NCBI GenBank assembly: GCA_039621445.1
Contig: CP154954.1
Coordinates: 48,091,847-48,155,846, forward strand
Length of the DNA: 64,000 bases
Source: Euglena gracilis
Lineage: Eukaryota
Direction: 5' to 3'
Shown one piece after another: positions 1 through 59,100 of the stretch; the stretch's first letter is position 1, and each line of letters opens with the position of its first letter. The notes below the pieces were generated by a model. The model worked only from the letters and a program-made list of their open reading frames with translations, had not been told where the DNA came from and ran no database searches. Both the position numbers and the translations under genes were made by a program.

Positions 1-3000
1 GTTTCACCTGGGCGGCCGAAGTCCCCGGTGGATCCAACCACTGGGACCCCCCCGGGTGGGGGGGTGCCGGTGAGTTAGTCTTGCCATATGTATGTGTATA
101 TATAGATATAGATATATGTAGATATATATAGATATATATAGATTTGTTATTATCCATTTGCTTATATATATATTATCCATTTGCCCCTCCCAGTAGAATG
201 AGCACGCACAGCACGCCTCATGTATGGGTCATGGGTTGAGGTTCTGCGGGCAGGCTGGTGGGGAGGCGACCAGGAGTAGGGGTCGGGAGCAGGGCTGCAT
301 GAGGAAGCCTGTTAGAGGGGGGGCGACCCCTACCTACCCCCCCCCACTCACCAAAACCCATGAGGTTTCTGGGGTTCTCATTCAGCCCTGGTCATGCGCC
401 ATCCCGGCATCCCTCCGCGACGACGGAGGGGGGGCGGGGGGCGGCCCGGTGGGCCTCCTCAGGGGGGAGAGGGGGCCCCGGCGCGGGGGGGAGGGGTCTG
501 GGTAGCGGTCGTACTGGCCCCCGGTGGTGGGGACGGGGTATGCCTCTCCGGCAGGCTTTGCTTGACCCCCCCCTTGGGGGGACACCCATCCACCACTTGG
601 GGTGGCGTGCCTAACACGGTGGGCGCTTTGGACCCCCCCCCCCGGCCTGCCAGGGCCACCGGCGGCCGCCCGAAAACAAAGCCTTGTTGGGATCCTCGGC
701 CCATTGGCTGCGGTGGTCGGCGTGGCGGTGCGGAGGGTCCGCCTCCTGTCGCTGCCGTGGCCGCTGCGGGCAGCACTCCCCGTGTGATGGCCGGAACGGA
801 GGGTTGCCGGTGTGGTGCCAAAGGGTCCCTTGCAACGCGCATTGTGTGAGGCCTGTGCAGCCCAGACCCAACTCCAAAGACATGATTCTTGTGTGCTGTT
901 CGCTGCTATCATTCCCTGGGGGTCCCCACTGGTTTTTGGCAGAAATATCGCCCGTTTTCAATTTCCATGTCTGGGCATTTTGTATTTTCAGTGTTCAGCT
1001 CTATCCTCCTCAGTCCACATGTATATCGGCACCCTGGAGGGGGGAGAAAAAAAAACAGGAAGGTGTGGAGGGCTTTGCTAAGATTGGAAATTCAAACCTT
1101 CACCAACATCCTACCCCTTGAGTGTATTCCCCCTAAATAATAATGATTTGAGCACCGAAGTCAGAGCCCAGGGGGGGGGGGTGGGGGGGTGTTGGGCTAG
1201 ATTATCAACCACAAAAAATGACTGCAAAATTTCTTTCGCCAATTTCTCCAGGCCAATATTTTTTGTAACTTTTTGTGCAATGACCACAATTTTTGAAATT
1301 CATACAGGCTCAATTCATCAATTTTTCTATGCACCTTTTTTGGATGTACCCGGTGATTTTTCTGCCATTTTTGTTTGTCTTCACCAGTGTGCAGCAGAGG
1401 GATCATTCTTTGGGAGATATCCGCTATGTGGGCAGTGACGAAGAGAAATGTCAGAAACAAGCACACGCAGTCCCACTTTCTCACCAAGGGGGAGGGCAAC
1501 AACGGACCCCGAAATAAATAATATCTCCCCCTAATTAATGATAAGCACACAAATCTACTCACTAACTAACGCTCATTCGGTGGTCTCAAGAACACAGCAG
1601 GGTGGAGTGCTGGCCTTGGCGCACGTTCCCGGGGTGGAGGGTCATCCCACTCAGCGGGCTCCTCCGCAAAGGACACCGGGCCATCCCACTTTCCACGGGA
1701 AGCCGCCGGCTGCTCGTGACGATGGCTGGGCCTCCGGTGCTTCGCGGCAGCGTCGGGTTGCACGTCGTCGGTCAACAGACTTCTGCCGCTGGAGATGCCC
1801 AAACGTCAAAAAAAGAAAACGCCGCAAAACCCATCAGGATGGCCAAAATGACAGTTGTGCCTATTGTGTCAGGCTTTGACCAAATCTGCTTGTTTTGTTA
1901 TGGTGCCAGCACATACATGGTCCAAGCTAGGCCCCGCCCTAAAAAACATGGTTCGAATTGTTTTCATGTTCCACCTGCCCCAAAACACAACCCCTTCCAT
2001 GTCAAAGCTCTGTACCACTATTCATGCAAATAGGAAACACCGTGCCAAAAAACTGCACCCCTCGCACCAGAGGTTTTTCAGGATCTGGGGGGTACGGACC
2101 CATCCACCCCACCCCTTAGAGGGGGACTCTCAGGGGGAGCACCCACTTTGGGGGGGGGGGGCAATTTGGAGTTCAAAAAAAATTAGGGCTGTGCAACGAA
2201 AATAGAGGGAAACCCCTCCATGCACCCACTCTGCCATCCCCCACATTGGGACCTTGGGGGGGATTCCAGCAAAATTGCCTTTTTTGTGATATTTTCAAAA
2301 AATCGGTGTTGCGGAACCGTTTGAACCTTGATTTGGTGGGAGGACATTGTGGATATCTCAAACCAAGCACCTTTGGAACACATTTCATGCTTTTGGCAGA
2401 AAGAAGAAAATTTTTTCCAATTGGTGACCTGGGGGGGGGGTGCTAAAAAGAAGTCTGTTTTCAAAAGGTATCCTTGGCCTCCGTTTCAAATGCTGAAGTC
2501 TGTCCCCAATCTTCCTCGGGGGGCGGAGGAGGAGGCGGAGGCTTCCGCCCTCTTGGTGCATCAGATCCGTGCATCCACTTGACATCTCCCAAACAATTCT
2601 TCGCTTGGCATCCACCTTCACACCCACATCGTCATCCCTTGCCATCAAAAATAGGAAACCCATGAAATTAGGTGGATATTTCAGGTCCAAGCAGGCACTT
2701 TGATCCCCCGAAGGGTCAGGTTTGGGGTGGGCAGTGGGTAGGCCCGAAAACGACTTTACCTGGGTCAACCCCAGTCTGGACCAGCGGTGCCTGCTATGGT
2801 CAGGCACCCCTGCATACAAGGTACACCCCTGGGATTATTAAAAAAAAATACCCCCCCCCTGCCTGCACACACCGGTGACCTTCCTTAAAAGAAGCCTGGA
2901 TCCAAAACTCTGCATTAAGAGGGAACACAAGAGAACGCAAAAGCTCTTCATGTGGTCTTTTCCCCAAACAAGAAGAAATCGAGGAAAAAAAGGAATTCCT

Positions 3001-4361
3001 CCTAAAACACTATTTTGAGGGGAAAACACGCAAAACAATGTTCGAAAACTTTTCCGCCGCCACCGCTCTGATCCGGCCTCCTTTGGCCAATCTGCGGGGG
3101 GGGTGCAAGTTTCCCCCACACGGCAAGGAGATGCCCGGGCGGGGTGGGACCGCTCCTTTCCGTCGCCCTGCCTCTCCCTTCCCCGCTGGGCTGCGGCCTT
3201 GGTGGGGGGCCGCCCCGGCGGGGGCCCCACAGGGGGCGGCGGGGGCTCCCAGCCGGGCGGCGGGTGGGCCGGCGCCTCGCGGCGGGTCGCGGTGGACAGC
3301 TTCCGGGGCACCGGGTCCTTGTGGGGCCCCGGGGCGGCTTTCCGCTGGGCCGCCTCCCGCTCCTGGGAGTCCGCCCTGGGGCAGGCAGGGTGCCAAAGAG
3401 GGGGAGAGGGGAGGTATGTCAGCTGCCCTCTCCCCTAACAAACAACTTTCCAATTTCCAACTTGCACAACAAACAAGCGCCAGAAAAATAGATTTGGGTG
3501 TGAAAATCAAAGTTTTCGATATGACTTCCTTCCATAATATTTGACCCCCACCCAATTTCAAGTCCAAGGAAAAAGCCTCACTTCGACCACAATCCTAAAT
3601 CCAGGGAACACCCTCACCAGGCTGAATTTGACCAAGTGCCCTGGAATGCCTGGGCAGGCAGGCACCATCCCCCCCTGCTGGTCATGTGCCAAAAAGTGCC
3701 CCAAAAATGGGCGTTTCTGGGCTTCCGGCGTCTTTGGCGCCAGAAGTGCCTTGCCCGAGTGCCCAGGCACTTTTGGCAACATGCCCTACCCCCCCCCCCC
3801 GCCCGGCCTTGGAGTGCCTGCCCAAGCCCCCCCCCCCCCCCCCCCCCGGCAGGGGGTCGGCGCCGCCTTTCTTCCCTCTGCACCTTTCAACACCTCCTTG
3901 AGCCAAGGCGAATGAAATCCTCAAATGCCATACCAGGCCAGTCATCAAAAGCAGCCATCATCGGTGTATGATATTTGCGAGTGACTCATTTTTGAGCAGT
4001 TTGCTCACCACACTTCGGGGGAAAGAGTTTTCTGGCCGCAATGTGGTCTGAAAAAGATTTGGCACAGGATGAAAAATTCATTTTACCCAAAAAAATTCAC
4101 AATCCAAATACTCCCAAAATATTGTTCCCATGATATTTTCACCCAGAATCATTTGCAGTAATTGTTTCCTTGGACTGCAGATGAAAATGGGTCCCAACAA
4201 AAAAACAGTGTACCGCAGAACCAGTGATGGTTCATGACAGCAAAACCACAATAGATGCCTGTCTTACTCCAATGCATCGCAGAAGGTATTTGCCAGCACC
4301 ATGAACCTATGCCAACTTAACAAAATCTCAAAAACAAGCAGTTATCCAGAAAAAAGCACAC

Positions 4362-6465
4362 CTGCGAGCCTTCTTCGGGCTGCGGCTCACCTGGCTGGGG
4401 CTGCTGGACCGCTTCTCCCTGGCCCCCTCGGCCTTGGGGGCCAGGGACTGTTTTAAGACCGGGGGGGAGGTCCCCCATACCAACCCAGAAGGTACCCCTA
4501 CCCCCCCCCTGGGGGGGAGGGGTCCGGGGACTCACTTTTGGGGGGCCAATTCTGGGGTCAAAAAAAATTCGCTTCGCGCCAAAAAAGGCCAAAAAGTGGC
4601 CAAAACCCACCAAGCCCTTTGGAGGAACTCCCCTGGGGGGTGGTGGGGAAGGGGAGGTAGGTTCGTAGGAGGTAGGGTCGCGCCGCCCAACCATTTTGCT
4701 GCTTTGGTTGGACCGCAGCCGGCCGCGGCCCAACCCAAAAAAATCTTGGTTGGGCTGCGGGCCAACCATTTCCGATGCTGAAATCATGAAATTCAGTTTG
4801 GTTGGACCGCGGCCACCCAACCACAACAGACCCAGCGAACTGCATCGCACAATGGCGGTTAAATTGGCTCCTACAGGGTACTCAGCGAACCCAGAAGGCC
4901 GCCCAACTAGGGTTAATACACATGAGGGGACCCTCGCTCGGCGCCTTCCGCACCGCTCAGGTCCCCCCATGTTTTTAACCCTAATTGGGTGGCCCTTTGG
5001 GTTCGCTGAGTACCCTGTAGAGGCCAATATACCGAAGTTGAGTGGGAAGGTTTGAACTGTTTGCATGAGAATCTTAACCCTAACCCTATTCCTTCAAATA
5101 ACGTCATAAAATCTTTTTGTTTTGTGATAACCTTTTGCAATTTGATTGGGGCCCAACCAAACCAGAATTCTGACAGCAAAGTATGGCCGTGGTTGGGTCG
5201 CGGTCGGCCGCGGCCCAACCAAACCCCTGTTTTGGTTGGTTGACGGCCGGCCGCGGCACCTACCTCCCACGAACCTACCTCCCGTGACATCCCACCCCCC
5301 CCCCTGGGGGGAGGAGGGGTCCAATGGACCCCTCCTCCCAAACTTTTTTAAAAAAAATCCCTGCTTGGGGCCCTTGCGGTGGCTGTTGCTGCGGCTGGCG
5401 CTGTGGCTGCCTCTGTGGCAGCAATGGGGCCTGGACTGCCTGCAAAATGCTGTTTGCTGATATTTAAAGCTGTGCACCCACACAATTGTGGCTTGAAAAA
5501 AGGGGGGGAAGGGCAGAAAAGTGGAGACGGTATTTCCTTATTTCATCATTTCGCACCATTTTGTGGATGGTGCGCGGGGGGGGGGGGGTGCAAGCAGGCC
5601 TAATAATTTCTTAAGGCGCCTTAAAAGCCTTAAAAACCTTGAAAACCTTGCATTTTTTTTGAAAAAAAGAAGTCACAAAATCAAGAACAAGCCAACTCCG
5701 GGAAAAAAGATGGTTTTGGCATCCCTTGAACATTGTGCATCCACCCAATAAATGTGTTTTTGGACTTTTCATTTTCAACCTGGACCAACGTTGGTTCGAT
5801 GCCTGGATAGCTCTTTGATGTCCCATGGAAAATAGACGCCTTAAAATTTTTAAAAAATTCAAAATGCCTTTAAAAAAAACCCTGAAAACCCTTTAAAAAA
5901 AATGAAAAATTGCCTCAAAATTGCCCCAAAATCATAATGCCTGTGTGCAAGGAACAACGACAGATTGAACCCCCCTCCCAAATATAGAACCCTCCGGGGT
6001 CCTTGATTTAGCGACCAAATATTTGAACATCACTCTCTGAAATGGGGCTTTTGAAACGGGGAATAAAAAAGCACCAAAAAATTTGAGGTTCGGAATTTCA
6101 GAGACAATTTTTTTTGAATAAGTGCGGCCTGATAAATTTCGTCCACCAATTCCAACCAAAGCAAACAAAAATACTCTCCAAAAATGGTCTAAATTATTGC
6201 ACATGGTGAGGGGAAAATGGTAACCTTCGGATCGACAAAATTCTTGACCAAATTTGGAACACCCCTCCGAGGGTTAGAACTGGTTCTATATTTCGGGGGA
6301 GTACACACCGGCTGCGCGTGGAGTGGCTGCCTTTGCTGCGGCTGCGGCTCTTGCTTCGGCTCTTGCTTCTACTGCGGCTCTTGCTGCGGCTTCGACTTTG
6401 AGTACGCTGTGCTGCAGGTGAACTGGCCTTGTCTCCAAGCCTTCGGAAAGCCTGAGACCTGAAAC

Positions 6466-6520
<55 letters not shown>

Positions 6521-9500
6521 CCATGTTCCTTGAGTAATTACAACCAACCTGCTTTTGTGACTCTGGCTTACCCCAAGCAGGGGTTTTCTCAAGGTTCCCG
6601 GGGGGGGGGGGTTCCGCAGGCCGGCTGGAAAAAGGTGCTGGCTGGACTCCCTTAGTTGCACTCAGGCTTCTTTTCTGTACATGGCCGGCGCTAACTTCGC
6701 TTCTGGCCCAGTTGTCAGGTGAGTGGTGAGTGGGGGGTGGGTTCGGCCGGCTGGGAGCTGGACCCGGTGGGTACCCAAAAACACCCGAAAAAGCCGAAAT
6801 ACAGTTGGGTTGGCATTTTTCAGCCAAATTCAGGTGAAACCCCAAAAAGCACCCAAAAAATGCCATTTTTGGCCATTTTTTGACCCCTTTCTTCAAAAAT
6901 TTTCTGCCAGGCTGGCTTTGCTGGGCTGGCCCAAACTTTGTTTCAGCGGACCCCTGGGGGGGGGTCCACAGCCTGGCTGGGAGGTGCTGGCTTGAAAAAA
7001 AGGTGATGGCTGACTGGACCCCCCCAGGAAGCAAGGCCCCCTACGGCTTAAGAAAACCCCTACCCCAGAGGCAGGTTCAACCTTAGAGCTTTTCCAACAA
7101 GTTTTTTTTTTGAGAATTTTCAAAGTTCCCAAAATTACAAACGCCACACAAAACCACAAGGAAGCAAAAGATGACGCAACCGTTTTCCCAATTATGCTCT
7201 CAGAATGTATGGGGGTTGGGCCTGAGACCAGGGCATTGCTTAATGAGGGGAGGGGGGGGGTCCAGGTCAGAAGCTGGAAAATTTGGGCTGGCTGGAATAA
7301 GGCTGCTGGCTAATCCCACCATGGGGGTCCCCCGGGCTGGAACTGGGCCAGACTGGGAGTCGAACCAGGGATCAAAACATTGAAACTCCAAAAAAGCCCA
7401 AAAAAACTGCCAGGGGTGTAAAAAAACACGGGTTTTTTGACCCAAAATTTGCCCTGGCCAGCCCAAATCCGACCCATTTTTGCAATTTCTGGCCATTTTT
7501 GCATATGTGAAAGCCAAAGATCCGTTTCTGTCAAGCCCAGGGGGGCACCTTGTGCAATGTGGTGCCTGCCCAAAGCCCCCTTAGGCTGCACTGAGGCTTC
7601 TTGCCTGTTTATTGCCGCCACTAACTTCGCTTCTGGCAAAGCAGGCACCCCCCCCGGGGGAGGGGGTCAGTTTTAGGCCCCAGTGAGGGCTTGATTTTTG
7701 GCGGTTGTAAACATCTTTTTTTTTCAGAGTTTGCAAATCGCCTTTTGTGAATCAAAAAAAAAAGCCATCAGCCCATTCTTTTCAGCGGCACTTCAAAAAT
7801 GCGCTGCCAGACAAGATGGAGCTTGACAAAATGCATTTCAGCCAACTTTAATAGGTGGAAAATGTATCGACCCTGAAGGATTATTGTGAAAATAATTCAA
7901 AACAGGAAAATGCTGATGAGGATGATGAATATTTTGTGAAAATGGTGCCAAAAAATTCTCTGACACTCAATACCAAAGACACAAATTGGTTTGAGATGTA
8001 CCAAAATTCAACTTCAAAATTCTTTGATTAAATTTTCAAGAAAAAGTGGGATGATTGAAAAACAATTTCCTCACCTAACAGAATACCAATCAAGCGAAAC
8101 AGAAAATTGTTTTTCCTGTCCTTCTGAAACCCATTATGGTTGGGTATTCTTTTGCTGTTTTAGGAATTTATAAAGACAGACCTATGCAGGATTATGCAGG
8201 ATCCCCCTGCAGGGAATCTTTAAACTCAGCACACCCTTTCCGCAGCAGCCTCCGACCATAGCCTGCAGGCCCAACGTTAATATCGTGCCAGTTGACGTTT
8301 GCATTCTCCGGCTCCGGAGTTGGGGCGCGCGTGCTGTCGCTGTGTCGGCTGCTGGAGCTGCTGCTGGAGCTACTGGAGCTGGGCCCAGCCCCTCCCATTC
8401 ATCACCATGCCATGCCAAAGCCAGCCAACCGAGGCACTCAGCTTTTCAGTTGCGGCGTAAAGACTGCCGCAAGCCTTTCCGCCTGACGCGGCAGATTTCG
8501 GTTGCAAACGGCCAAAAGAGGGACTGCACAGAGGCACTGCGCCCGCGTTGGGCAGGCTGAGGCTCCGCGGGAGGCATGCTGCGGGGAACCTCCACGCTGG
8601 GGGCGGCCACCGCTGGTATCTGTGACGGGGTGGTATAGCTGAGGATGGATGGGTTGGCATACATCACACAAGGGAGTGGCGGCCGGCTTGTTGAACTCGT
8701 CCCCAAACAGCTTGACTTCAGATCCTGGCCCACAGGGATGGTCAGCTGCCATTTTCTTTTGTAACTGTCCCCTTTTAAAAAAACAGCAACAACTAGCTGT
8801 GAAAGGGTACCACACGGGCATCAACTTCTCGTCCTACTTCAAACGACCTAAAAATGCTTTCTATTGGGGAATGGATGTGGTCGCCATTTGGGAAAGGGAT
8901 GTGCGTGGGATGTTTGGGACGTCATCACAGGAGTGGGGCTCCAACAGCTCAGCGGGAAGGGGGCCCCTGCACACCAGCGGGGAGGAGTACTGGCAGGCGA
9001 AGCGGGGGAGGCAGCGCCACTGCCCATCGGCACCTTGCTGCAGGAAGGGGCCGCAGCGGAAGCGAAAGTGCAAGGCACACTGGGACCACCGCAGGGCGGC
9101 GCCGGACGCCAAGGAATGGAGGGAAGCCGGCACATCGCCGGGAACCGTCGCACAGACCCTTCCGCACGATGGCTGCAAACGCATTGCCTCGGGCCAAAAC
9201 AAAAACAAGGAGGCAAAAAACCAGAAACACGCAGCAATGCTGTACGTTAATACTAATGCCGATGCCAATGCTGCGACCCGATCAATTAAATTGAATCAAA
9301 TTAAATAGATCAAATTAAAACAAAAATGTGGACAGCAAAATGTTATTTGAGAGGACCAAATCGCTGCGGCTGGATCAACCCCTCGCGGGCCGTCACACAG
9401 CCAGCGGGCCCGCCCTGCGCTGCTCGGTGGGTCGGGGCCTCCGCGGCAGGCACGCCCTGGGCGGTCCTCGCCGAGGACTCCTCCTGCTGGAGCTGCTCGA

Positions 9501-12500: not shown

Positions 12501-15500
12501 CCGAATAGTTGCCCCCAGGGGCTTCTATTCAGGGGGGGTTAAGTGACTGAGCGATTGTAGTGGGCTTGGGTCTCAGATGTCAGGATGCTGAACTTGACGC
12601 GCATTGTCTTGCCAAATGTTAGCCCACCTAGTGTGGAATATTTTCTGTGGAGATATAAACATATAAATATAAATTGTTCGACATTGGGGGGATTGACGGC
12701 GATGGCACTTGAACGAAACAGCAAACTGCTGCAGCTGCAGGATCTGATCCTGAGTCACAAAAGGCATACGATGGAACCAAAATGGCACGCCGATTTGACT
12801 GGTAAAGCCGCGTCAGCCAGCCCTGAGCCAACAGGTTTAACATCCCTTCCAGGCTGGAATGTGTGAAAAGGGACAAAAAAGACACGCAATAGGACGCTCT
12901 CAATCAAGTAATTATGGCAAACAACAACTGATGATTGGTCACCATTGCCACAAACATGAGCACATTTTCGAGCAATTTACTCACCAAACTCACAACGATC
13001 CAATCAGGCTTTTGCTTAAGGGATTGCAGTGCCCCCGGGGGGGGGGGGGCTGGACTGCAGCTAGTCCAAATCTGGCTAGTGGGATTTCTAGCAGACCCCC
13101 CCCCGGGGGGGTCTGCTAGCAGGGCTAGCTAGTGGAAAATTTTTTCCAGTGACCGGCGCGAAGCACCAGAAACTTTTTTTGGGAATTTTTGGAACAAAAT
13201 CAGCCAAAAACCTATTAAAAACCTCATTTCCACCTCGGCGCGCAGCGCTGGAGGAAAAAAAAGGAAAAAAACTGGAGGAAAAAAATTCCAGTTGGGGGGA
13301 CCCCCGGACCCCCCCCCGGGGGGGAGGGGGGTCTAGCTAGTCCATTTTTTCCAGTGTCTAGCCGATTGGCTAGCCAGTACCCGGGGGTCCTTAAGCAAAA
13401 GCCTGGATCCAATGTGACTTTCATGTTTTTCATCAGGCTGGTCTGAAAAATGAAATCCCGCAAATGAAAACAAGAATTTTTTGCAACACCCCTTGTGCAA
13501 AAGGCAAAATTTATTACCATTGTTGTCAAATATTCGACTGATAGATCAGGGGCAAACAAACAAATCAATGGAAAAGCTTGCACAGGCGTTCATCTTTTAA
13601 AGCCTGAACAAAGATCGTGGAACGTAAAAATGACAGGAAAATAATACTTCAGAAAAAGCAAATTTGGGAAGATTTCAATTTCGAAATTCAGATTTTGGGT
13701 GCAGAGTTGTAACTGCGCACACCATGCAGATCAGTCTGAATACCCTGCAACCCCGGGTCGGGGGTTGGGCAAAGTGGGCACCGTACACCGAAGAACCTTT
13801 GGACCCCGAAATTGACCCCAAAAGTGGTCCCCCAAGCCCCCCCCCCCCCCGAGACCTCCCCCCAGGGGTGGGTAGGTGGATCCCGACCCCCAAAAACAAA
13901 AAAACCTCTGCCCCGACGCCATCTACAAGCTTTACCTATTTTTCTCTTCATTTGGAGTTTTTTTGAAGGCTTTGGCACCATTTGAGCTTGTTTTGGAAGG
14001 CTTTGTAAGCCAATTAAATAGTTTTGTTTGTTTTGCTGTTGAACAACGACATCCACATGCACATATGAGTTGTACACATATGAGTGGTTTTATCACCAGA
14101 AACCCCCACCCGTCAGACCAACTGGCTGGGCGACTCACCAACCCCTCCCAACGCAAGTGATAATTTCCATTACGTTGATTCCCTGAACAGTGCAAAGGGA
14201 ATTTGGAGAGCTCTGGCACCTGAAGGTGGCACTGCTGCTGGTCTGGGGTGTCCGGGGGTGGCCCGCTGAACAGCGCCGGGGCGGCAGGCGGGGGCGGGGG
14301 CGGCGGGGGCGGGGCTGGCTGGGGGGCACTGGCCCCAGCCCCCTCCGCGAATGGCCAGGCAACGGGCCGGGGATTGCCCACTGAGAGAGAAGGGGCCGCG
14401 TGTGCATCGCCACGTAGTCTGTCTTTGTCCCCAGGGAAAACGACAGCCACCTTTCGGTGTAAGCCGTAACAGAGGGATGTGATGGGCACATAATACATGC
14501 ACAATGGCTAAATGCCCTGTTTGCTTTTGTCAACCATGATCACTCCACCCAGGGGTTTGTGTTTTAAGAATGGGGGGAGGGGGGTGTCACCCACCCACCC
14601 GCCCACCCCCTGGCCGGGGGGGGGGGGTTGGGGGACCCAACCCACTTTTCCCTGAAAAGGCCAAAAAATAACAAAAATGCTAAAAAAAGGCACCTCTTTC
14701 AAAAATTTTCGGTGCCTTTGGCGCCGAAAAGTATATCCCACCCCCTGGGGGGACCCCCCCCCGGGGGGGCTCGGCCAGACCCACCCCCCCACCCCCCCAG
14801 GGACCAAGACAAAAAAAAACCCCCTGACTCCAACAGAAGAGGGGAGCCAGCTCTTGGCAGCAGGGTCGGTAATTGTTTCCCAACATTTTGGATGAGTGTT
14901 CACAAAAATCAGAAAAAGCAAATTTTGATCGAAACTGTGTCAAATTGGAGGATTTGCCTTGAACTGGATTGTTGGACAAAGATTGCTCAAACCAGACAGA
15001 GGGAGTGCGGAGTGGAACTCATGGGCCAGCACCTTCAACGCTGGGGATGACGCGCATCTCCACCTCCACCGCCGCTGCGCGTTCTTCGGTGTGCAGCTGC
15101 GTCACGTCCTCCTCGGTCTTCAGCCGGATCTGCATGCCGCCGCTGCTGGGGGGCGGGGGGCGGGCGGGGGGGGGGGCTTGTTTGTGAAACAGCACTCCGA
15201 CACCATCAGGGGGGGGGGGACTTTGATGCGAATTCGGCGTGGGAGAACCCGAACGTGCAGAAAACTGGGCACTGCGGTTTGGTTGCGGCCGTGGGGCCCA
15301 CCCAGCCAGGAATTCCTGGAAAAGAAAGGGGGGGGGTGCCCTGCCGTGTGTCAGCCAGTGGACCGGGATACCCTAAGTGTTGTGCCTGCCCTCCAACTGG
15401 TGGGCAGCAGGGGGGCAGGGCCACACGGTGGGTATGCCAGCTCGCAAGGACAAATTCCTTCGGTACTGAAGGCATCTGAAGGATCCCCGTTGAAAGTTCT

Positions 15501-18500
15501 GAAAAAGAAAAAAGAAAACCTGGCGCGGGGGGAGCCCAACCCACCCCACCCACTAATGGATATTCAATGGACAACCCCCTTCATACCCCCCCCAAGGGGC
15601 TCAGGGTCAGCTCTGGGGGGGGGGGGGTGAACACATTGCTGTGTTTCGGCATGGAATTTGACACCAAAGAGAACAGGAGGAAAAGCCTGGCAAGGAGGCA
15701 CTGGGGGTAGAGGTGGCTGCACTTCTTCCACAGGCGCAGCCATGATGCGGTCCACAGTCTGGGAGAAAGCGAATGCAATTCATACAGTTCATACAACAAA
15801 AAACAAAAAAAAATGCAAAAGCTACAAAAAACTGTAATAAAAACAAACAATAATAATGATAATTATGAATATGATAAAAAAAAATGAAAAATGATAAATA
15901 ATGATAAATATGAATATGATAAAAAATGAAAATGATAAATTCAAAAAAGATGCCCATCACCGATGCAAACCCAATCCAAACTAATCCATCCCAATCCACG
16001 CCAATCCACATTGCTAACCTCACCATTGAGATAAAATCAAAACACTTTCCACCCCTTTCAGAACGAAGACTGGTAATCTACTTGGGCTGTTAGCCCCTCT
16101 CAAATACAGAGGACATGAAACAGTGAGCTTTGCCCTTCCCCCAACCCCAATGTTCACATGGCATGGATGTGCGGTGGGCAACATGCCTGGCCGGCCCATG
16201 CCGCCACACCTCTTCTTCGCGCGGAGGAGGGTTGGCGGCCTTGGGGGCGGGTCGGCGGTCTTCGGTCAGCCGCCGCACGCCACTCCGCCGCATTTCGGCG
16301 TCCGCCACGCGGCGCTGCAGCTCGTCCCTCTCCCTCTCCAGCTGGAGAAGCTGTAGGCGGCGCCAGGGCGTCGCGTTCCACCACAACCCGTACCCCCAAG
16401 CAGGCTTCTTTTGAAGACTTCCCCAGGGGTTCCCCACCCAGCCTGGCTCAAGACACCCTTTTAATACAAAAAAGGTTTCTTGTTTGTTTATTTTTTTAAT
16501 GCCAGCGCGGACTTCGCATCTGGCCGGGTGTGTTCCGTGTGGTGAGTGAACATGCGCGCGCACAGGGGAGGGGGTCTTACAAGCCAAAAAAAAGGGCCTG
16601 CCCCCAAGTCCCTGCAACGTCTCTGAGTCCCGGTAACGTGCGCCCTCGGCAATGATGTTTGCCCGCCTGCGGGCAAACATCAACCAATGCCATTTCTGCA
16701 AAAAACCCAGGGGTATCTGAGGCACACTGCGTCGGTAGTGCATTTTGGGGGGGGAAAACAAGCAGTCCAGGGCGAAGGAGGGTTCCTCCAGAGTCCGTTG
16801 GGGGCCCACCCACCACTGGGTACACGGCGTCCCCTTTGGCAATGTCCCGGGCGGTGCCGCTCCTGCAGCAGGGCCAGCTCGGGGTCAACCGCCAGCAGGG
16901 AGGAGGAGGGGGGCGGAACCGGGGGGAGCGGGAGGGCCCCGTCCCCGACAGCAAACGGCGAGGGGCGTCGCAGGCCGGGGTCGGAGGGAGGCACAAGGCA
17001 CAGGAGAAGCCGGATGTGGGGCGGACTTTCTCCCTCGCAACAAATGAACGTCCACTTTCTGAGCAAAAGCCATATTTCTTGTCCATTGGATGGCGGTCCA
17101 CCACAGCTTGGCTTGCCATGCGTTGAACTGGAAAACACTGTTTTTTTTTTTTTTTCCCACCAACCCAGATTGGCCCAGATTGCCTGAATGGTGCTGCACT
17201 GAGAGGTGCACTGGGGGACCCGGGGGCAGGGGGGGAGGCGTCGGTGGGAGTGGTGCTCCGTAGTCTCGCAGGCTGGGGGGAGGCAGCGGCCGGTCGCAGC
17301 CAAGGCTTCCTGTTTGCCACCAGAGGCCAGGCTGGGCGGGGCGGGGTGGGCCCCAGGCCCTCGCTCCGGAAGGCGGCGGTGGGGGTGGCATGGGGGGCAG
17401 CGGTGGGGCGGTGCCAGGGGTGGGCGCGCCCTCGTCCACCAGGGCCGGGGCAAGCCGGGGCACACCGAACGGAGTGGGCGACCCGGAATGCAACAGCGTT
17501 CGGAACGTTCTGTGCTCTGACTCGCCGGAGGTTCGGCACTGGCAATGCGGCGGCCCAGCAATGTCAACGGCGGCCAAATCCTCCACGTCTATTGCACCCA
17601 GCGATCACACATCAGTTGGGCAGGTGAGTGGGAGAATTGATGGCCTCTCTCAAAGGCGAAGATGCAATTGGAAGTTGGTCATTCCAACGATGACGTGTCG
17701 GACCTCATACACAGCAAGGGGGTGGCGGGTTTCTGGCAGAGAATCCTGTGCCACAGCCAGGCCACAAGGTCCTCTGGGGGTTTCGGCAACGTCGACGCCA
17801 GACTGACGAGGTCGTCGGGAGGGTGGGGTTGGGGCCCTGAAAAGAGGTGCCCCATTCAGCGAAAAGGCGCCTGTCCCGGGGCAAGAGTTATATGATTCAA
17901 CCCTGTCTGTCGACATATTTACAGCATTGATGAACAGAAGCATAAAGGGTTTTGGGAGATGGCCTTTTTGCCAAGCTAATTTTGTAGATCCGGTTGGCCC
18001 CTGGTCGGGCCTGGTTCTAGCTGACATATGTAACAAAAAAGGGGTGCCCATTCAGAAATCATTTGCAAAAGAGTATTCTGTGACACACATCAAAACCACG
18101 AGATAACATTTTGGGTCATCCGCAGGGTTTGATATAAGGACAGGTGGGGGGGTGGTCCGGACCCCCCCCCCCCTGCGGGCCAGGAGGGGGGGTGGGGGGG
18201 ACACCCCCCACCTAAACCATGTACGCCCTCCTTATATCAAACCCTGGTCATCCGGTTGCCCCAATAAAAAAAAACAGAAGACCACTTTTGAACCTTTTAG
18301 TCAAATCATCACATACAGTATGAGACAAGGCCATTTTCTTCAAAGCATGCATTCTCATCTTTAGTTGCCACCAATGCAACTGGAAAACCTCCAAGACAAG
18401 GGAAAATGGATAAAAACTTCAACTGGAAAGCAAAAAAAAAGAACATACGATCTCGTGGAGGAGAATGCTGCATGCGAGCTGCTCCTCCGACTGGCCCAGC

Positions 18501-25668: not shown

Positions 25669-25712
<44 letters not shown>

Positions 25713-26013
25713 AGTGTTAAGTTTAGGGCCCCCCCGGGGGGGGTACGAAGCTTGACACCGGGGTGGGCACCCCCTTAATGAAAGGTATAGGGTTAGGTGC
25801 GCACATGCTAATTTAAGTTAAATGGCTGCGTTGCGCTAATAGGCTATGTTGTGAAACAGTGTCGATTAGCGCAACATAGACAAATAGAGAAAATTAGCAT
25901 GTGTGCACCTAACCCTATACCTTCAATAACGGGGGTGCCCAACCCGGTGTCAAGTTTAGTACCCCCCCGGGGGGTACTAAACGTAACACTTGCCATATAT
26001 ATGTACATATATG

Positions 26014-50100: not shown

Positions 50101-53100
50101 CGGCCGTGGCTTCCAACAACCAACCCCTCAGGGACGGGCAATGCAGGGCCCGCTTGATGGGAGGGGCGGGCATGGGCAGCGCGGACTGCCCAGCCAGCGG
50201 CGGTCACGGTCCGCAACGAGCGGCTGGAGGCGGAGGCGGGGCGGCTGCAGCTCGAAGTGGGGGCGCTGGGGCAGGACCAGACCCGGCTGCGGGAGGAGCT
50301 GGCGGCCCACCAGCACATCACTGCGCCCAGCCCCGGTTCGGCTGTCCTCCCCCGCCATTGCCCTTTGCCCCTCCCCCCGCTGGGGGTTACCACTCAGCAA
50401 AGTTGATGAGCAGGTCGTGACAAATGAACCGCTGGTGGCTGTATGGGACGGGGGGAAATCGCTGCAGCGGAAGGGGAGCCACCTTTGATGATTCGGCTTC
50501 ATTTCGGATTGATTTTTGAGCAGGTTCGATTTCCGAGGTTGAAGTCTGCTTTGGGGAGGGGTCACCCTTTTTTTTTATTCAGCCCAAGTTTTGCAGCACC
50601 AGATGGGATTTTCAGGAAGCGACACTTTGGTTGCACAAGGTCCCCAATTCCATCAGAGAGGAAGGCTGTCAGGGGCTTTGGGAGCCCAACCCCGCCTTCC
50701 GTCCACCTGCGCTGCCGGGAGCCCAGCAGGCGGTGTGGGACGAGTCCCGCAGCGCACTGGAGGCGCAGCGCGACGACGCCCGGGAGCAGTGTGTCGGGCT
50801 GCAGTCCGCACTGCACACGCGGTCCGCAGAGTGCCACCGGCTGCAGGAGACACCCACGGCCCGGGGGGGGGGGCTCAATGCCGCCATTCCGACCAGCCAA
50901 GGTTCGATGACGGAGGTGGCAGGCGTCCAACCTCGGCGTTGGCCACCTGTCTGCCGCCGGCGCCCCGGCCCGTGCCGGCACAGCGGGGCCTCGAGGGCGA
51001 GCTCGCCGCCACGCATGCGGAGCTGCACGCGCTGCAGGCTCACTGCCGGCACACGGAGCAGCGGGCGCTCGACGCCGCGCGGGACGCTGCAGCGTACCAG
51101 AGCCGGGTGCAGACCGCTGGGGAAGAGGCGCGAACGCTGCACGAGGAGATGGAGTGCGCGGCCCAGCCGGCTGTTGATGAGACCCCTGCCAAACGCAAGT
51201 CCCACAAAGGACTGCATCCCCCATCCCCCTCCTCCCCTATAATGGGTGTGTCAGTGAGGGGATGGACGCAAAGGCTGAAGCCAGATGCGAAGCCAATGGG
51301 AGGATTGCAATTCTGCGGTTGCCCTCTCGCCCCAAACTTCGTGATTCACAACGTGCTTCTAAATGTTCCCTCGAGGCGTGGGCCCATCAACGTGCCAACT
51401 TACTTTTTTTTTTGCATTTTCCTTCATGGGGTGTTCATTCTGTTCCTCCAGTGGGTGGCCCGTTTTTCAGGTGAATGCCCCCCCATGCGGCCGGCTGGGC
51501 TCGGCGGGGTTTGACCCAGCACGGGGTGCCGGGGCCTTGCTTTGTGCCAACGTTGTCATGAATGGCCACAGCGCCCCCCCCCCCCCCCTGTGCCGGCCGG
51601 CCTGCGGCCCCAGCGCTTCGGGAGCAGGCGGCGGCGCTGCACGCGGTGGCGGAGGAGCGCCAGGACCGCCTGGCCAGCGCGGCGGAGGAGTTGCGCAGCG
51701 CCCACGACCAGCTGCAGGCGATGGCGACGGCGAAGGCGTCCACCGTGGAGCGGCTGGAGGAGGAACTGGGGCAGCCCGGAGCCGGGGTCTGGCGCCGGTA
51801 ACATGTCGGTGGGCATCGAGTCAGGACAGACAGTAGTTCAACTCTTTTGTGGTACACAGCTGGTGTTTTTGATGTGCCATTTGGACACAGTGTACATCCA
51901 AGAAACGTTGACACTAAGAGCCTAAATTGTTAGAGGTCAAATTTCCTGTTTACTTTTGACTTTCCGGACCTGGGCTGGCTCCGTTGCACTGCGGCTTGAG
52001 CACGGCCAAGCCTTGCACCTCCAGAGCATATTTTGCCTGAGACATCTTAGCCAGCTCCCTCCTTTTCGGTGCTTCATCTGCCAGTCTGCCTTGCTACCGG
52101 ACCGACGGGATGTAGTTCTCAGAGGTGGGAATTCCTAATGCCATTCCACCACTTGCACAGAGCAACCGCCCGCCCGAGACCTCGACAGCTTGGGTTTTGG
52201 GTCCGACTGGAGCCTCTGATCGTGCTGGGGTGTCAGCGAATCGTTTTGATAGCCACTACCGACTTGCGCCCCCTTCCTCCCCCCCCTCAGGGGTGGCCCG
52301 GGGCTTGCGGGTGTGCGGCGGCTGGAGCACTGGGAGCAAGCAGAGCGGGGGCGGCTGGCGGTGGAGGAGCAGCTCGGGTGGTGTGGCGTGGCGGAGGGCT
52401 GGCAGCTGCTGGCAGCGCGGGCTCGGCAGGAGGCGCAGGTGGCGGGGCTGCAACACGCCATCGCCGACCTGCGCGAGGACCTGGCGAGGCCCCGCGCGTC
52501 TTTAGTCCTCGGTTTGCGTGGGCTGTGCCGGAGGTATTATCCACCTGTTTTCAGGCATGGGTGGAATGGGAGCAGCATTTGCGACTACACTTTTCTCGTG
52601 TGGATTCAAACAGAGAAAACACTTGTCACGCAAGCTCTCAAGCAAGAACGCCATTTGCATGCGCGGCACGTCTTTGCCTCCCCTGCCCTACCCCCCCCAA
52701 GCAGGGTTTGATATAAGGAGGGCGTACATGGTTTAGGTGGGGGGGGTGTCCCCCCCCCTCCTGGCCCGCAGGGGGGGGTCCGGACCCCCCCCACCTGCCA
52801 GGGGGGTCCGGACCGACCCTCGGGGGGGGTTCCCGGGACCCCCCCCAAAAAGGGTCAATTTTTTCCTCCGGCGCTTCGCGCCGAAATTTTTTTGCATTTT
52901 TGGCACATTTTTGCCCCAAAAGTGCCCAAAATGGCACTTTTGGTCGTTTTGGGGGGTCAAAAATTTTCGGCCCGGCGCGAAATTCGGCCACCCTGACCGC
53001 GCACCTGTTTAGGTGGGGGGGGGGTGTCCCCCCCACCGCCCCCCCTCCTGGCCCGCAGGGGGGGGGTCCGGACCACCCCCCCCCACCTGTCCTTATATCG

Positions 53101-56100
53101 AACCCTGCCCCCAAGCTTGTCTGAGCCAGGGCCTCCCCCCGGCCAAGGCGGAGGCGCTGCGGGCGGCGCTGGAGGGGCAGGCCAGCGCTCTGCGGGAGGC
53201 GGGGGAGGCCCAGCGCGCCGCCGCGGGGGACGCGCTGGCGGAGCTGCACCGCCGGCTGGATGTTGCTGCGCGGGACGGCGAGGCGGCTGCGGCGGCGCTG
53301 GCGGAGCTGCGGCAGAGCAACGGCCGCGCCCGGGGCGGTGCTGTCGCCCAACCCCCCCTCCCCCGGTTCGTGTCCACGGAGGGTGGGTTTGTGGTCCAGC
53401 CCGTTGTTTCCGGCCCTCGACTCCCGGACTGAAATCCGTCCCAAAATTTCACCACACTCGGTTGTTATTAATTGCCCACGTCGCCCAACGTTCACTCTTT
53501 TGAGCCGCACTGCACTGCGTTTCTTTGCAGTTTAAAACTGTATTTTTTTTAACACGGGGAACGCTGAGCGCAGCCCCGGCCCTCTCGTGGCAGAGGCCTC
53601 CGAGTTACAGTGCACTGTGGCGACCGCCATTCTGCTCGCTGGCAGGATTGGGTTCAAGCCTTCGCTCACCCCCACACCCCCACACCCACACACAGAGCCA
53701 AACGGCCCACACGACCCCTTTTGCAGTGTGTGCGAGTGCACAGACCTTTATGCAACTAACGGGCATCGTTTTGAAGGGCAGAAAGTCAGACCATCTGTGC
53801 ATATGCGTTTTGGCCCACAATCGACTGCTTGATTTTCTTGACGCTCCATCCCCTTCAAAAAGTCTGAAGAAACCTCTTGAGTGGCATTCTGGGACGCTCT
53901 GCGGCTTGTACAATGTACTGTGACAGCAGGGTCTTTCTTCCTGGAGGGGACCTTACCCCCCGGAGGGGGTCCAGCCAGCCATCACTTTTTTTTCCAGCCG
54001 GCACCCCCCGTGGCCTGCTGAAACAAAAGTTGGGTCCAGCCTGGCGAAGCAGGGCAGGAAAAAAAATTTCGGCGCAAGTGCGGGAAGTTTTTGAAAATGG
54101 GGTCAAAATGGCCAGAAATGGCCATTTTGACCTCCTAATTTGGCCGAAAAATGCACACCCAGATGGATTTGGGCTTTGTAGGGCATTTTTTTGGGTCCAA
54201 CTGTCTGCCGGCCGGCCGGAATCAGAGGCGGGGGTCCAGCCAGCACCTTTTTGCAGCCGGCCCACAGGACCCCTCAGTGACCCTATAATACAACCCCCCC
54301 CCCCCCCCAAAGTGGGTGTGGGGCCCCCACAGCCACGCCATTGGGGGCCCCATATGGGGTGGGTGTGCCCGGTCCCAAAAAAAAAACCTTCCCCCCCTCT
54401 TGACGGTGGCCGCCGGGTGGCGGGCCCGCAGCTGTTGGAGGAGGGCCGGCAGGCGGCGGAGGCGGCCGCGCTGCGGGACCAGCGGGACGCCGCCGCGGCG
54501 GAGGAGCGGGCGGCGCTGCAGAGCCGGCTGGCGGCCCTCGAGGCGCAGCACACCGCCGCCCTGCGAGAGCTGGCGTCGCCCCAGGGTCCCCACAGGTGAC
54601 CGGGGGGGGGGGGGCGTGGCGTGCTGAACTTTCAGCCGGCGGGCTGGTGGGCGGCGGGATACTGCCATCCGTGGTCCCCTGCACCAACCGGCTTCATCGG
54701 AGGTGGTGTGATTGCGCAGCCGGATCGTCTGTGTCCCTACCATACGGACATGCAAGCAGGTGCCCCCAAAAAAGAGCCTTGGCCACCGCACTCATGATGC
54801 GGTTGCCAAGTCTTTTTCCTGCATTGTTTCAGCCAAGTCCAGGGATAGCTGAGAAGATTTTTTTCGGGGGGTATTGAGCATAGGGAGGTATAGATTTTTT
54901 TTGGAAGTCACCAGAGGGTTTCTGGCACCAGCCAATGATCGCCTCCAATATCTGCAGACTGAATTTGAAGTGGTCACTACTGGGCAGTCCTCCGTTGGGC
55001 AAAGCTATGTATGCATTTTGGTGAGGAAGCTGAACCAACGCCATATGCTTGAGCAAGCAAAGGGAAGGTTAAAAACGTCATGGGATCGATGGGATGACAA
55101 ACTTCGAAGGAGGCTCGAGATTTGGGAACCTCGACAGCGTGCACATGGTGATCCATTCAAGGAGTCATGCGGGAATTCAACACCTTCCTCCTCCTTTTGT
55201 GGCTGGTCTGCGTGATTTTTGTCTATGTATTTCTTCATCATTTTTCTCCAGGGTGCCAGTGTGGAATTTCGATTTTTTTTTGTATTTTTGTGGTTGGGAT
55301 CAATCAGGCTTCTTTAGAGTCAAAAGAAACCTCCCTCGGGGTCCTGGTCTGGAGGCGAGGTGTAGGTTTCGGCGCGTAACGCCGAATTTTTTTTTGGGAA
55401 ATGGTCTCAGACGGCCCGATTTTTGGCCTCCCCCCCCTGGGGGGGGGACCGGGCTGGCTGGGCTGGGGGACCCCCCCGGGTCTGAACCCTGCTTGGGAGA
55501 ATCATCTGTAAGTGATTTTTTTGGTGCTTGTGTTCACATCAGATATTTAAGGGGCGTGGTGTGGGTCCGGATCCCCCCCTTCCCCTGGGGGTCCTTAAAA
55601 AACCTCTGGCTCATATGACGGAGCACTGTAGGCGAGAGGGAAGCAGCGATCCAGCGTGCCTCCGTTCTTGATGGCTGCGTGGGCCAGCCCACTGTGTCTT
55701 GCACCACATTCAGCACCTCAAAACCCAGCTCTGGCTGCACACTTCATGCACAGATCACCGCACACATACCCCACCCCCCCGACCCACACAACGTACACGC
55801 CATGCGCCTGGTGAAGGCGGGCACCCCATTCCCATGACACAGCTCGCTGACGCCAACGATGCACATGCCATGTGCCTCCGGTGGCTGCAGCACGCTGAGC
55901 AGGCTGGGCGCACCGCTCTGGGGACGGAAGAGCGGCTCGGCCGGACTGACGCGGAGCAGCGCCTCAGACGGGAGCTGCGGGAGCAGAAGGACCGCGCGGC
56001 GGACCAGTGCCGGAGGGCGGCGGACCGGTGCGCGGCGGAGGAGGCGGAGGGCCGCGTCGCGCTGATGCTGGAGTGCTGGCAGCCGGCCAACACCCCCCCC

Positions 56101-59100
56101 CCCCCAGTCCACATTCCAGCCACCCTCGGTGACAGAACAACCCCAGAAATGTCTGCGAGTTGCCAATTCCCCATCCCCAGAGACGACCTTCCAACCAGTG
56201 GTTGTTGTGTCTGGGCACAGGCTGAACTCAAAGTATTCGCCCACCTTGACTTTGGCAGACAAGCGTTGGTTCTCACTTTTTGGATGCCCAAGAAAGCGTG
56301 ATTTTTCTCATGTACTGATTTTGTTGTTTGCCTCCCGACAGGTCATCGCGCTGCCCATGGGGCAGGGATGGGTTCATGACGGGGTTTTGATTTTTTTGAC
56401 GCAGTGTCGGAGAAACCAGACTCTGGGTATGTCAAAAACTGTCAAAAAAATGTCGCGGAAATCAAGAAGGTGATTCCTAATTCAATGGGCCGCCCTTTCT
56501 GAGTGTCTATTTTTTCGCATAAAACATGGCGGACAAGTGAAATCCCCTGGTGGGGTCACAGTACCAAGTATCAAGTGTGAGCTTGCCCGTGGGCAGGGTC
56601 ACCCTTCTGTTGATTTGCCAGTGCCGGGGAGCCGGAGGCGATTGTCCCACTTCCTCTGCCGGGATTGGCTGCGGTGGGGATGCCGCTTGTCCTTGGAACC
56701 CCTCACCCTCCTCGGCCTAACGACCCCCCGTCGGAGGCCCTTCTTTTTGGTCCGAAAATGATGTCCAACGACCACCCCCCTGTCAGAGGACAGAGATTTC
56801 AGTCCTTGGACTTTGATTTGGTACGGATTTGTGAGGTTGGGAGTGGTTGGACGACGTGAGGGTGGGGCGGTGCGGGCAGCGGTGCAGTGGGGGCGGACGG
56901 CTTGGAGACTGCGGCGGGGTTGCAGGGGGAGGCGGCGGCGCTGCGGCGGGCGATGGACGTGGCGGAGAAGCGGCAAGGCCAGAGCGAGGGAGAGGCCGGC
57001 CAGGCCAGGCCCCCTTGCAGGGGAGTACACATGTGGGTTTTTTTGCCTTTTTTGATTCTGATCAAATTTGTCTTTTTTGCTTTTTTTGCCTTTTCCCCAA
57101 AAAAATTTTTATTCTTGTTTGGGAAGCAACATATTGTGGCCAAAGTTTGTTAAAACCAAATCTTCGCATTTTCTGTGCATATTGGCCCAAAAATGTGTAG
57201 TTTCAGAATCAGCCAATTCCCACCACCAATCTTAATGTTTACGTATTTGAAAAGATTTTACACCTAGGTCTGATTTTCTTTTTTTTTTGTGTGCCTTTTT
57301 TGCATTTTTCCCCCTTTTTTTGTGTCGCAATTTTGGAGTGTCCATACTTTCCTCATTCTTTCCCCCTGCCTCTTGTGGGGTCTATTGCCCATCCTCCCAC
57401 GAAGTGCGGGTACCTTCCAGAGTGGCCCCGCCTGAGGACGCCAAGCATGAGAAGCAGCTGGCGGAGGCCTCCCATCGGGCTGCGCTTGGGGTTGGGCCCA
57501 CCTTCCTGCCCTCACCCCCCCTCGTCTGTTTCTTGCTTTGTGACGTTTGCCATCACGCTTGGACGCACCCTGGGGGAGGTATGGGGACTTTCGGTCGCGG
57601 ATTCTCTGCGCATGTCACCCTCGTTTGGAGACATGCCCGACCCCTGCCTCAGCCCTTGTTGAACAGCTCCAGGTGGCCGTTGTGCAGCGTGATCGGTGGG
57701 CCCCTGGGGGGGAAGAGGAGCATTGGGGAGAAGCAACGGGGGGGGGGGGGGGGGGGGATCAAAAAGGACATGGTCTGCAGTGATGTAATTTGAATGGAGA
57801 CAGGGGGGCAATATGCAACTTGCATAATTTGCAATCTTTTGCATAATCAGTTTTTTTCCGAAATTTGCATTTTTTGCATTTTTTTTGCATTTTTTTGCAT
57901 AAAATATTTTGCCCTGGAAATTTTTTTGTAGTTGGTCGCCATGTCATGCTTTGTCTGGTGCCATTCATGTTGATTTTCAAAGTTTCGGTGCTTGCTATTG
58001 TCTTCCATGAGGTCAATCATTGACAGGCACACCGGCATTGTCACATGTTTACGGATTTTAGGCAGCAAACTCTGTTATATTCCAGCCTTTTCTCAGGGGT
58101 TTTACGCAAGTTGCATTTTTTGCATTTTTTTTGCATTTTTTGCATTTTTTTTGCGTTTTTCTGACTTGCATAATTTGAAGGGCCAAGTTGCATATCCCCC
58201 CCCCCTGATAGAGAGGACAAAAAAAAAAAAAAAAAAGCAGTCTGGCAATGCAGATTATTGGTATCTCAAACGGATATCGAAGCACTTCTCCAACACAAGA
58301 AACAGCCATGCAGAATTCCTGTCCCCCAATCAGGGTTTTTTTATGTTTGCCCCCCCGGGGGGGGGGGGGGGGGGTGGGGGGGGTGGGGCCGGCCGCCCCC
58401 CCCCCCCCCCCCCCGGGGGGTCCCCCCGGAGGGGGGTGGGATATACTTTTCGGCGCCGCAGGCGCCGAAAAAATTCTATTTTAGCATTTTTCGCATTTTT
58501 TTTTGTTTTTTTTTTTTCTGACATTTTTTTGTGGCCACCCGTGACCCCCCCCCCCCCCCCCCCCCCCCCCCGGGGGGCCCCCAGGGGTGGGTGGGGGGGG
58601 ACCCCCCCCTCCCCCCCCGGTCTTAAAAAAAACCCCTGCCCCCAATACCCACCCCCCTTGTGTGTGTTGTGGCGGGCCATGTGGTGGTGGTCGGGACAAC
58701 CCACGCTGCACGGCCAGCGGACCACCGGTGGGGACGCAGCGGAGAACCGGGCGGCAGCGCTGCAGGCGCAGCTCGAGACGCTGCAGGCCGCGGCCGGAGG
58801 GGCGGCGGCCGCCCGCGCAGCCCTAACCGAACAGCTCCAGCGGCTGGAGGAGGACCACACCCACGCCATTGCCTCCGAGCAATGTCAAGGTGCCATAGTC
58901 TGGGCATTCTTGTCTGGCCGCAGGCGGCAGTGGCCACCACCACGGACCAATTTCGGAGGTGTCGTGGCCAGCGGGGCACCTCCCACATTTTAACTCCCAG
59001 AAGGAGCCACCACCGGGGTCCCCACCGGCTGGCTCACAATGTCCTGCTCATCTCTTGCCAAAAGTCTTTCTGTCTGGCACGAGCCCCACTTGCACGGCGA

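Follow-up and report, generated by a model that had tools for sequence, protein, structure and literature searches.

The locus described here raises the question of how an intron without GT-AG borders can arise inside a coding exon, and whether a transposable element lying between two copies of a short direct repeat has itself become that intron. Our analysis of the window, i.e., the whole 64,000-nt stretch of DNA that was studied, indicates that a non-coding transposon with CAGGG ends was very probably inserted into an exon, with a putative hAT-like transposase behind the insertion, and was then removed from the transcripts as a nonconventional intron. The host gene runs on the minus strand from about 8398 to about 1566 and its product is Ser/Arg/Pro-rich. 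No Pfam domain was found in the host-gene protein (three exons searched, 0 matches), and exon D of 83 aa gave no match to longer proteins at E <= 0.001, a result that is weak evidence with a query of such low complexity. The window combines GT-AG introns with CAG/CTG introns, and its source was treated as a Euglena-like nuclear genome. The segment 56496-56515 matches the euglenid spliced leader except in the length of the T-run, and the spliced-leader string also occurs in the available text of publications that deal with Euglena gracilis, E. longa and Eutreptiella.

Three RNA raw-read runs (X21, X22 and X24), which carry the same species label and of which about 5-6 per 100 of each run were sampled, were mapped together with a DNA contig run (X1) over 2500-6465. 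On the minus strand the order is ...CAC CGC AAG GGC CCC AAG | CAGGGATTTTTTTT ... AAAACAGTCCCTG | GCCCCC AAG GCC GAG, and the RNA joint 4432->5364 skips 931 nt, with 7 bases compatible with both sides. This joint was read six times in X21 (six starts), once in X24 and not at all in X22, and these seven reads from two of the three runs carry the junction GGCCCC|AAGGCC that had been predicted from the sequence. The 931 skipped nucleotides equal the 922 of the MITE-like element A (Table 1) plus the 9 of the longer repeat copy. The intron boundary is slidable by -3 to +4 nt with the mRNA unaltered; the intron starts with AAGCAG and ends with GCCCCC, and GT..AG occurs at none of the eight equivalent cut positions, so that the borders are not GT/GC-AG. 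The flanks of element A are both exonic, as had been claimed, because GT..AG joints connect them to neighbour exons on either side. The upstream joint 5412->6309 was supported by six, zero and three reads in X21, X22 and X24, respectively, and the downstream joint 3374->4361 by three, four and two. The downstream exon ends at AG|GTGTG, its donor lying at 4362/4361 as expected. For the upstream exon the frame was unchanged, but the exon starts at 5412, after an acceptor AG at 5414-5413, and not at 5439 (27 nt off), and only (R)GSHSASRSNSHRKGPK of the proposed peptide is exonic. The alternative boundaries that would have placed both repeat copies inside a pre-existing intron were not borne out; the transcripts use boundaries which remove the element and one repeat copy, and therefore no older intron surrounds the element.

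Table 1. Features of the host gene, of the nonconventional intron and of the related elements in the window (window positions)
Feature	Position	Strand	Details
Exon A, Arg/Ser-rich	6309..6458	-	sequence, RNA depth; loose end at 6459 toward exon near 8232
Conventional GT..AG intron, upstream	5413..6308	-	joint 5412->6309 (896 nt), CT..AC on the + strand; element G inside
Exon B, 46 nt	5367..5412	-	encodes (R)GSHSASRSNSHRKGP-; joints 5412->6309 and 4432->5364; translation
Target-site duplication, upstream copy	5364..5371	-	GCCCCAAG; last 3 nt (AAG) = intron 5' spacer
Nonconventional intron	4436..5366	-	931 nt = AAG + element A + GCCCCC
Element A, MITE-like, 922 bp	4442..5363	-	ends CAGGGA...TCCCTG; sequence, inverted repeats
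Target-site duplication, downstream copy	4433..4441	-	GCCCCCAAG, one extra C; first 6 nt = 3' spacer
Exon C, 74 nt	4362..4435	-	encodes KAEGAREKRSSSPSQVSRSPKKAR; joints 4432->5364 and 3374->4361; translation
Conventional GT..AG intron, downstream	3376..4361	-	joint 3374->4361 (cut +1), skips 986 nt
Element G, 349 bp	5595..5943	.	CAGGC ends; flanks GGTGCAAG / TGTGCAAG; inside conventional intron
Element F, 401 bp	13005..13405	.	ends 14/14 complementary; GATCCAAT on each side; no open frame through empty site
Element C, 277 bp	14550..14826	.	flanks ACTCCACC / ACTCCAAC; ...TTCTTAAAAC...CCCTG end like those of A and B
Element D, 124 bp	18123..18246	.	GTCATCCG on each side
Element E, 406 bp	52702..53107	.	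D family, opposite orientation; CCCCCAAG on each side
Element B, 308 bp	58331..58638	+	closest relative of A; CCCCCAAT on each side

At three positions, 4389 (A>G), 5380 (T>C) and 5404 (T>C), all the joined reads depart from the window sequence, and they therefore derive from another allele or strain, so that for the exact copy in the window splicing is what we infer. These variants, together with the possibility that the RNA and DNA runs are from different strains (32 of the 44 mapped X21 reads were only 95-99% alike), are in favour of another explanation, namely that an allele or paralogue lacking the intron gave rise to the joined reads and that the window copy stays unspliced. We regard this explanation as extremely improbable. 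In the X1 DNA the allele with 5380C and 5404C (depth 4.38 of 7.38) runs on into the end of element A, with variants at 5344 and 5349; this second allele is represented by a contig of about 5317-5435 which carries 5349 T>A, 5380 T>C and 5404 T>C with the element end present, and neither an empty site nor the joined form was found among the X1 contigs at the locus. Moreover, the boundaries agree exactly with the splicing code as established by experiment. The joined reads are thus best accounted for by splicing and not by a copy that lacks the intron.

Element A was described in the original prediction as a CAG...CTG element with an 8-bp duplication plus one extra base, and the sequence matches this description. 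The flanking repeats are of 8 and 9 nt, which requires one indel, and the AAG of the downstream copy opens the next exon. As to whether four or five G stand at 4436-4440, five were not contradicted by X1 record 5, which spans 4350-4731 without a differing letter and without a listed indel at these positions, but this record has two gaps of which only one is listed (4461). The terminal inverted repeats of element A are complementary at 11 of 14 positions without a gap, and further inside lie long imperfect arms (inverted repeats I2-I4: 4494-4522/5292-5320, 4635-4676/5259-5300 and 4703-4735/5191-5223), an inner palindrome (I1, 4860-5031, with 57-nt arms) and nested high-copy repeats. There were 0 Pfam matches in four open frames searched within the element, and 0 Rfam matches over the whole window. 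Word depth in the X1 DNA was 140-11,880 inside the element as compared to about 5-18 in the flanks, an excess of 10-fold to over 1000-fold. Repetition is high in the interior and about 10- to 20-fold in the outer arms; these values do not describe the outer termini alone. A BLAST comparison of 4300-5500 with the window did not find element A in full a second time, and the outside matches were only short: one, at 58612-58645, involved the end of the element, and the other paired 4511-4563 with 13798-13847 (53 nt, 79%). Element A is a composite of nested repeats and therefore not a fresh insertion. The view of a transposon "caught" in the act held as far as a transposon serving as an intron is concerned, but it overstated recency because of the nested high-copy repeats, the occupied second X1 allele and the absence of an empty site from the X1 contigs.

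The euglenid splicing code 5'-N3CDG-/-CH'GN5-6|R was defined through knock-in experiments (PMC12501133; Nomura et al. 2025), which found the 3-nt 5' spacer to be strict, the 5-nt 3' spacer to tolerate +1 and the exon to open with a purine (PMC12501133). The 6-nt 3' spacer at element A is a natural instance of the "+1" tolerance measured in that paper. Set against the code, the window intron reads AAG-CAG...CTG-GCCCCC|A, with CAG 3 nt in, a complementary CTG, 6 nt in the 3' spacer and a purine (A at 4435) as the first base of the downstream exon. In the minimum-energy fold the intron bases 4-11 (CAGGGAUU) pair with the 3' end, and the first three and last six nucleotides are unpaired; the folded intron has a minimum free energy of -519.8 kcal/mol (z = -16.3), and none of 20 shuffles was as stable. 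By the match to the code and by this fold, the intron is therefore typical of the euglenid nonconventional class. It would be cut by the euglenid nonconventional splicing system. Introns of this class are released as full-length circles after the conventional introns have been removed. A back-joint at 4436/5366 was not among the joints listed, where depth was low, and this speaks neither for nor against a circle.

Further genomic copies of the element ends, for which a search had been suggested, were present in the window, each with its own 8-bp duplication. We scanned the window for N8-CAG...CTG-N8 with a flanking repeat of at least 7/8 and inverted ends of at least 11/14, and found six pairs, as compared to none in 19 and one in 1 of 20 shuffles. 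The flanking repeats of these six elements are 8 bp long, four of them perfect and two at 7/8. Register offsets of the flanks from -3 to +3 gave counts of 1, 0, 0, 6, 1, 0 and 0, and because the counts peak at zero offset the repeat begins right after CTG and has a length of 8 bp. Element A, the seventh, was absent from the scan output only because of its extra C. With relaxed thresholds (repeat at least 6/8, ends at least 10/14) the extra pairs were mainly tandem-array artefacts at 34-47 kb. When any inverted ends with a perfect 8-bp repeat were admitted, a (TA)n microsatellite at 25.6-26.2 kb dominated the output, and outside it CAG ends formed the largest class, with four matches.

All 14 ends of the seven elements consist of CAGG(G/C), a T-rich run and TTAAG(G/A). 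The ...TCTTAAAA...CCCTG end of A is common to B (50/60 identical at the 3' ends) and C (47/57 aligned), the likeness between A and B being confined to about 35-60 nt at the ends. Elements D and E are identical at 58 of 59 positions at both ends and their duplications are unrelated, which is the signature of transposition. At least four elements lie in a non-coding context (G in a conventional intron that the RNA reads verify; F, C and D at sites through which, with the element taken out, no open frame runs), and their duplications are therefore not a product of exon or splicing constraints. Judged from the sequences, element A belongs to a real mobile family. The D/E terminus was also matched at 17 loci in metagenomes, with a single match each; identity past the 18-nt seed was at chance level (6-16 of 42 for the 16 loci whose context was complete, and only 8 bases to compare at locus L004), and these loci were rejected as chance matches.

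The shared termini also bear on a second explanation, in which the intron was gained via double-strand-break repair with filler DNA and the 8-nt repeat is the footprint of the repair. A precedent exists in the gapC gene of E. agilis, where a newly acquired nonconventional intron has direct repeats of 8 nt that were attributed to break repair (PMC4770533), and no transposase was detectable in the 64-kb window (0 Pfam matches in 10 long open frames). But repair would not be expected to leave the same inverted termini and a constant 8-bp repeat at seven sites in 64 kb, nor is it in keeping with the near-identical ends of D and E or with the several sites outside coding sequence, and we consider this origin very improbable.

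According to a third explanation, an older, unrelated nonconventional intron has ends and a stem that are required by splicing, the repeat is due to chance or to "slidable" microhomology, and pieces of transposons were inserted later. Short direct repeats are indeed found at the junctions of 84.4% of E. agilis introns (PMC12501133), the interior of the window intron is visibly built of nested high-copy repeats, and another nonconventional intron in this host gene, at about 1770-2505, is without a flanking repeat. Against this, beyond the CAGGG...CCCTG ends the intron contains only the repeat itself (931 = 922 + 9); the terminal 35-60 nt are common to B and C, each of which has its own 8-bp duplication elsewhere; and a repeat of 7-8 nt in exact CAG/CTG register is rare by chance. 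An older intron of this kind is very improbable in our judgement, and we prefer insertion of the transposon into the exon.

Given what was observed, namely the anatomy of the element, the RNA junction and sibling copies that each have a duplication of their own, the intron would have been created through insertion in the following way. A transposon with CAGGG inverted ends would have entered the exon of the Arg/Ser-rich protein gene, duplicating 8 bp of the target, about GCCCCAAG, and the pre-insertion allele is predicted to read ...GGGCCCCAAGGCC... without the element. The euglenid nonconventional system would cut the pre-mRNA 3 nt before CAG and, for the second time, 5-6 nt past the base-paired CTG, ahead of a purine. 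The transposon's own ends would supply the CAG/CTG pair and the stem, and the spacers would be parts of both copies of the duplication. The excised RNA would then be the element plus one duplication copy, and the mRNA would be back to its pre-insertion sequence; it would be scarless because the 3 + 5 spacer bases equal the 8-bp duplication. At element A the cut would fall after 6 nt, ahead of the first purine, with the frame kept, and the extra C would be accommodated, since a 3' spacer of 6 nt is allowed if its sixth base is a pyrimidine and the seventh a purine. Within the window, N3-CAG..CTG-N5/6|R was satisfied in 13 of the 14 element-by-orientation cases.

That euglenid nonconventional introns derive from MITEs was proposed in 2014 (PMC3935182) and the idea was repeated in PMC11282704, PMC12501133 and PMC12621601; TSD-like repeats are mentioned in PMC11282704, and in 2025 the origin of these introns was still graded as unclear or plausible (PMC12501133, PMC12621601). 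In E. agilis, nonconventional introns make up 71.8% of all introns and the "slidable" class 69.1% of the annotated nonconventional introns, and the "slidable" introns were left aside while the splicing code was derived (PMC12501133). The MITE-origin hypothesis and the cut positions per the published code are thus already known. What is new here is a concrete family, and the spacer arithmetic in which 3 + 5 equals one 8-bp duplication. In the openly accessible literature that was covered, no paper was found that names the transposon family behind these introns or that ties the 3 + 5 spacers to an 8-bp duplication, and the terms "hAT", "8 bp" and "superfamily" are absent from the available text of the review PMC11282704.

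A broader proposal, for which we see even chances, is that the euglenid splicing code matches the insertion geometry of one CAG-ended, 8-bp-duplicating (hAT-like) MITE superfamily. If this is true, nearly every insertion would be a scarless intron on landing, in either orientation, and the large "slidable" class would be insertions whose duplications are still visible. It would explain the tolerance of the genome to a heavy transposon load in genes and the ambiguous borders of most such introns. C|A stands at duplication positions 5|6 in six of the seven elements and coincides with the cut site, and the pyrimidine|purine rule at cut sites may reflect a target preference of the transposase. The proposal makes a genome-wide prediction, i.e., an 8-bp duplication adjoining CAG/CTG and equal to the 3 + 5 spacer bases. 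The locus serves as an RNA-supported worked example for the open question of the origin of euglenid nonconventional introns, and small elements such as D (124 bp) may be suited as cassettes for the existing knock-in splicing assay.

The general hAT end consensus is of the CAG(G/A)G type, and the family-typical duplication patterns include the Ac type and the Buster type. The hAT MITEs, e.g., Mar of Drosophila, have 8-bp duplications and short CAG(G/A)G-type inverted ends, are non-coding and are shorter than 1 kb (PMC3517528), and the window elements are alike in their 8-bp duplications, CAG-type ends, lack of coding capacity and length below 1 kb. They differ from hAT MITEs in that no hAT transposase was found in the window, and in that none of the seven duplications fits nnnTAnnn, the Buster-type consensus as quoted in PMC3517528, since TA was at duplication positions 4-5 in 0/7 elements. 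The window was also scanned for longer elements, of 3-20 kb, that combine ends like those of the seven elements with 8-bp repeats, and the sole match was a poly-T artefact. Membership in the hAT superfamily is suggested only by the geometry of the 8-bp duplication and the CAG(G/A)G-type ends, and the transposase would by this token be hAT-like.

Compared with the euglenid nonconventional introns of Milanowski et al. (2014, 2016), the window intron likewise has no GT-AG borders, a CAG at +4..+6 paired with a CTG close to the 3' end, direct repeats at its junctions ("slidable") and GT-AG introns in the same gene. It is different in that a repeat family, with further copies elsewhere, can be named for it, and in that its junction repeat is readable as an 8-bp target-site duplication. 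Introners are known from Micromonas, Aureococcus, dinoflagellates, Amoebophrya and Fritillaria (reviewed in PMC11282704), and with them the window intron shares a non-autonomous DNA transposon in an exon, ends and a duplication that give the splice signals, and precise removal (PMC11282704). Most introners use the spliceosome at GT-AG or variant sites, whereas the window intron follows the CAG/CTG stem code. Maize Ds, when spliced as an intron, is reportedly removed via cryptic spliceosomal sites and usually imprecisely. Ds is of the hAT type and, like the putatively hAT-like window element, sits in an exon and is removed from the transcript, but the excision in the window is exact and rule-based.

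The exon upstream of element A, the 922-bp MITE-like element removed as part of a nonconventional intron, begins further downstream than the original prediction had placed it. The acceptor AG proposed there, at 5441-5440 (- strand), was unused in the mapped RNA reads, and the acceptor in use is the AG at 5414-5413, as shown by nine RNA reads from two runs; this site lies 27 nt downstream on the - strand and leaves the frame unchanged. The same host gene, which encodes a Ser/Arg/Pro-rich protein, carries a second nonconventional intron, where the loose ends of mapped RNA reads exit at 2505 and resume at about 1768. When slid by 1 nt, this intron reads GGA-CAG...CTG-TTGACC and is followed by G, and a flanking duplication is absent from it (3/8 match).

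An intron of this gene contains a possible degenerate eighth member of the CAG...CTG set, whose end CAGGCTTCTTTTAAGGA is similar to the 401-bp element F. Its flanks, TTTGGATC and CTTGGACC, match at 6/8 positions and its inverted ends at only 7/14. Upstream of the Arg/Ser exon on the - strand lie the two copies of a direct repeat, and the intron upstream of this exon is likewise composed of repeat fragments. The palindrome inside element A has 57-nt arms that are 88% complementary, and it is among the most abundant repeats of the genome, the DNA word depth of the palindrome and its neighbour being 5,900-11,900 versus about 7 for single-copy sequence.

Features identified in and around the host gene and elsewhere in the window
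Feature	Position	Strand	Basis or mark
Inner palindrome of element A and neighbour	4860-5031, extending to ~5160		DNA word depth
Second nonconventional intron of host gene	~1770-2505	-	Loose ends of RNA reads
Candidate degenerate eighth CAG...CTG element	2692-2898	-	End likeness to element F, flanks 6/8
Direct repeat, ~60 nt, two copies	6640-6700 and 7580-7650	-	Begins GCCAGAAGCGAAGTTAG
Low-complexity tract, strong strand bias	~9800-12000		+ strand skews
Two further inverted-end elements	19787-20233 and 25709-25994		Ends GGCAGGCGGGTAGC and GGCAAGTGTTAAGT
Tandem array, period ~1155 bp	~34000-47300		Recurrence of stop-free frames
Euglenid spliced leader match	56496-56517	+	Sequence match, T run shorter

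The low-complexity tract has a GC skew of 0.57 and an AT skew of 0.45 on the + strand. In the tandem array, stop-free frames recur every 1154-1156 nt, with a G+C content of 0.65-0.70 and a strong GC skew (0.17-0.37). Both further inverted-end elements are flanked by ATATATAT and may belong to another class of transposon, one with TA repeats as its target. The spliced leader match, located in genomic DNA, is directly followed by CATAAAACATGG, with no GT donor there, and has the appearance of a retro-copied trans-spliced mRNA, not of a leader-RNA gene.
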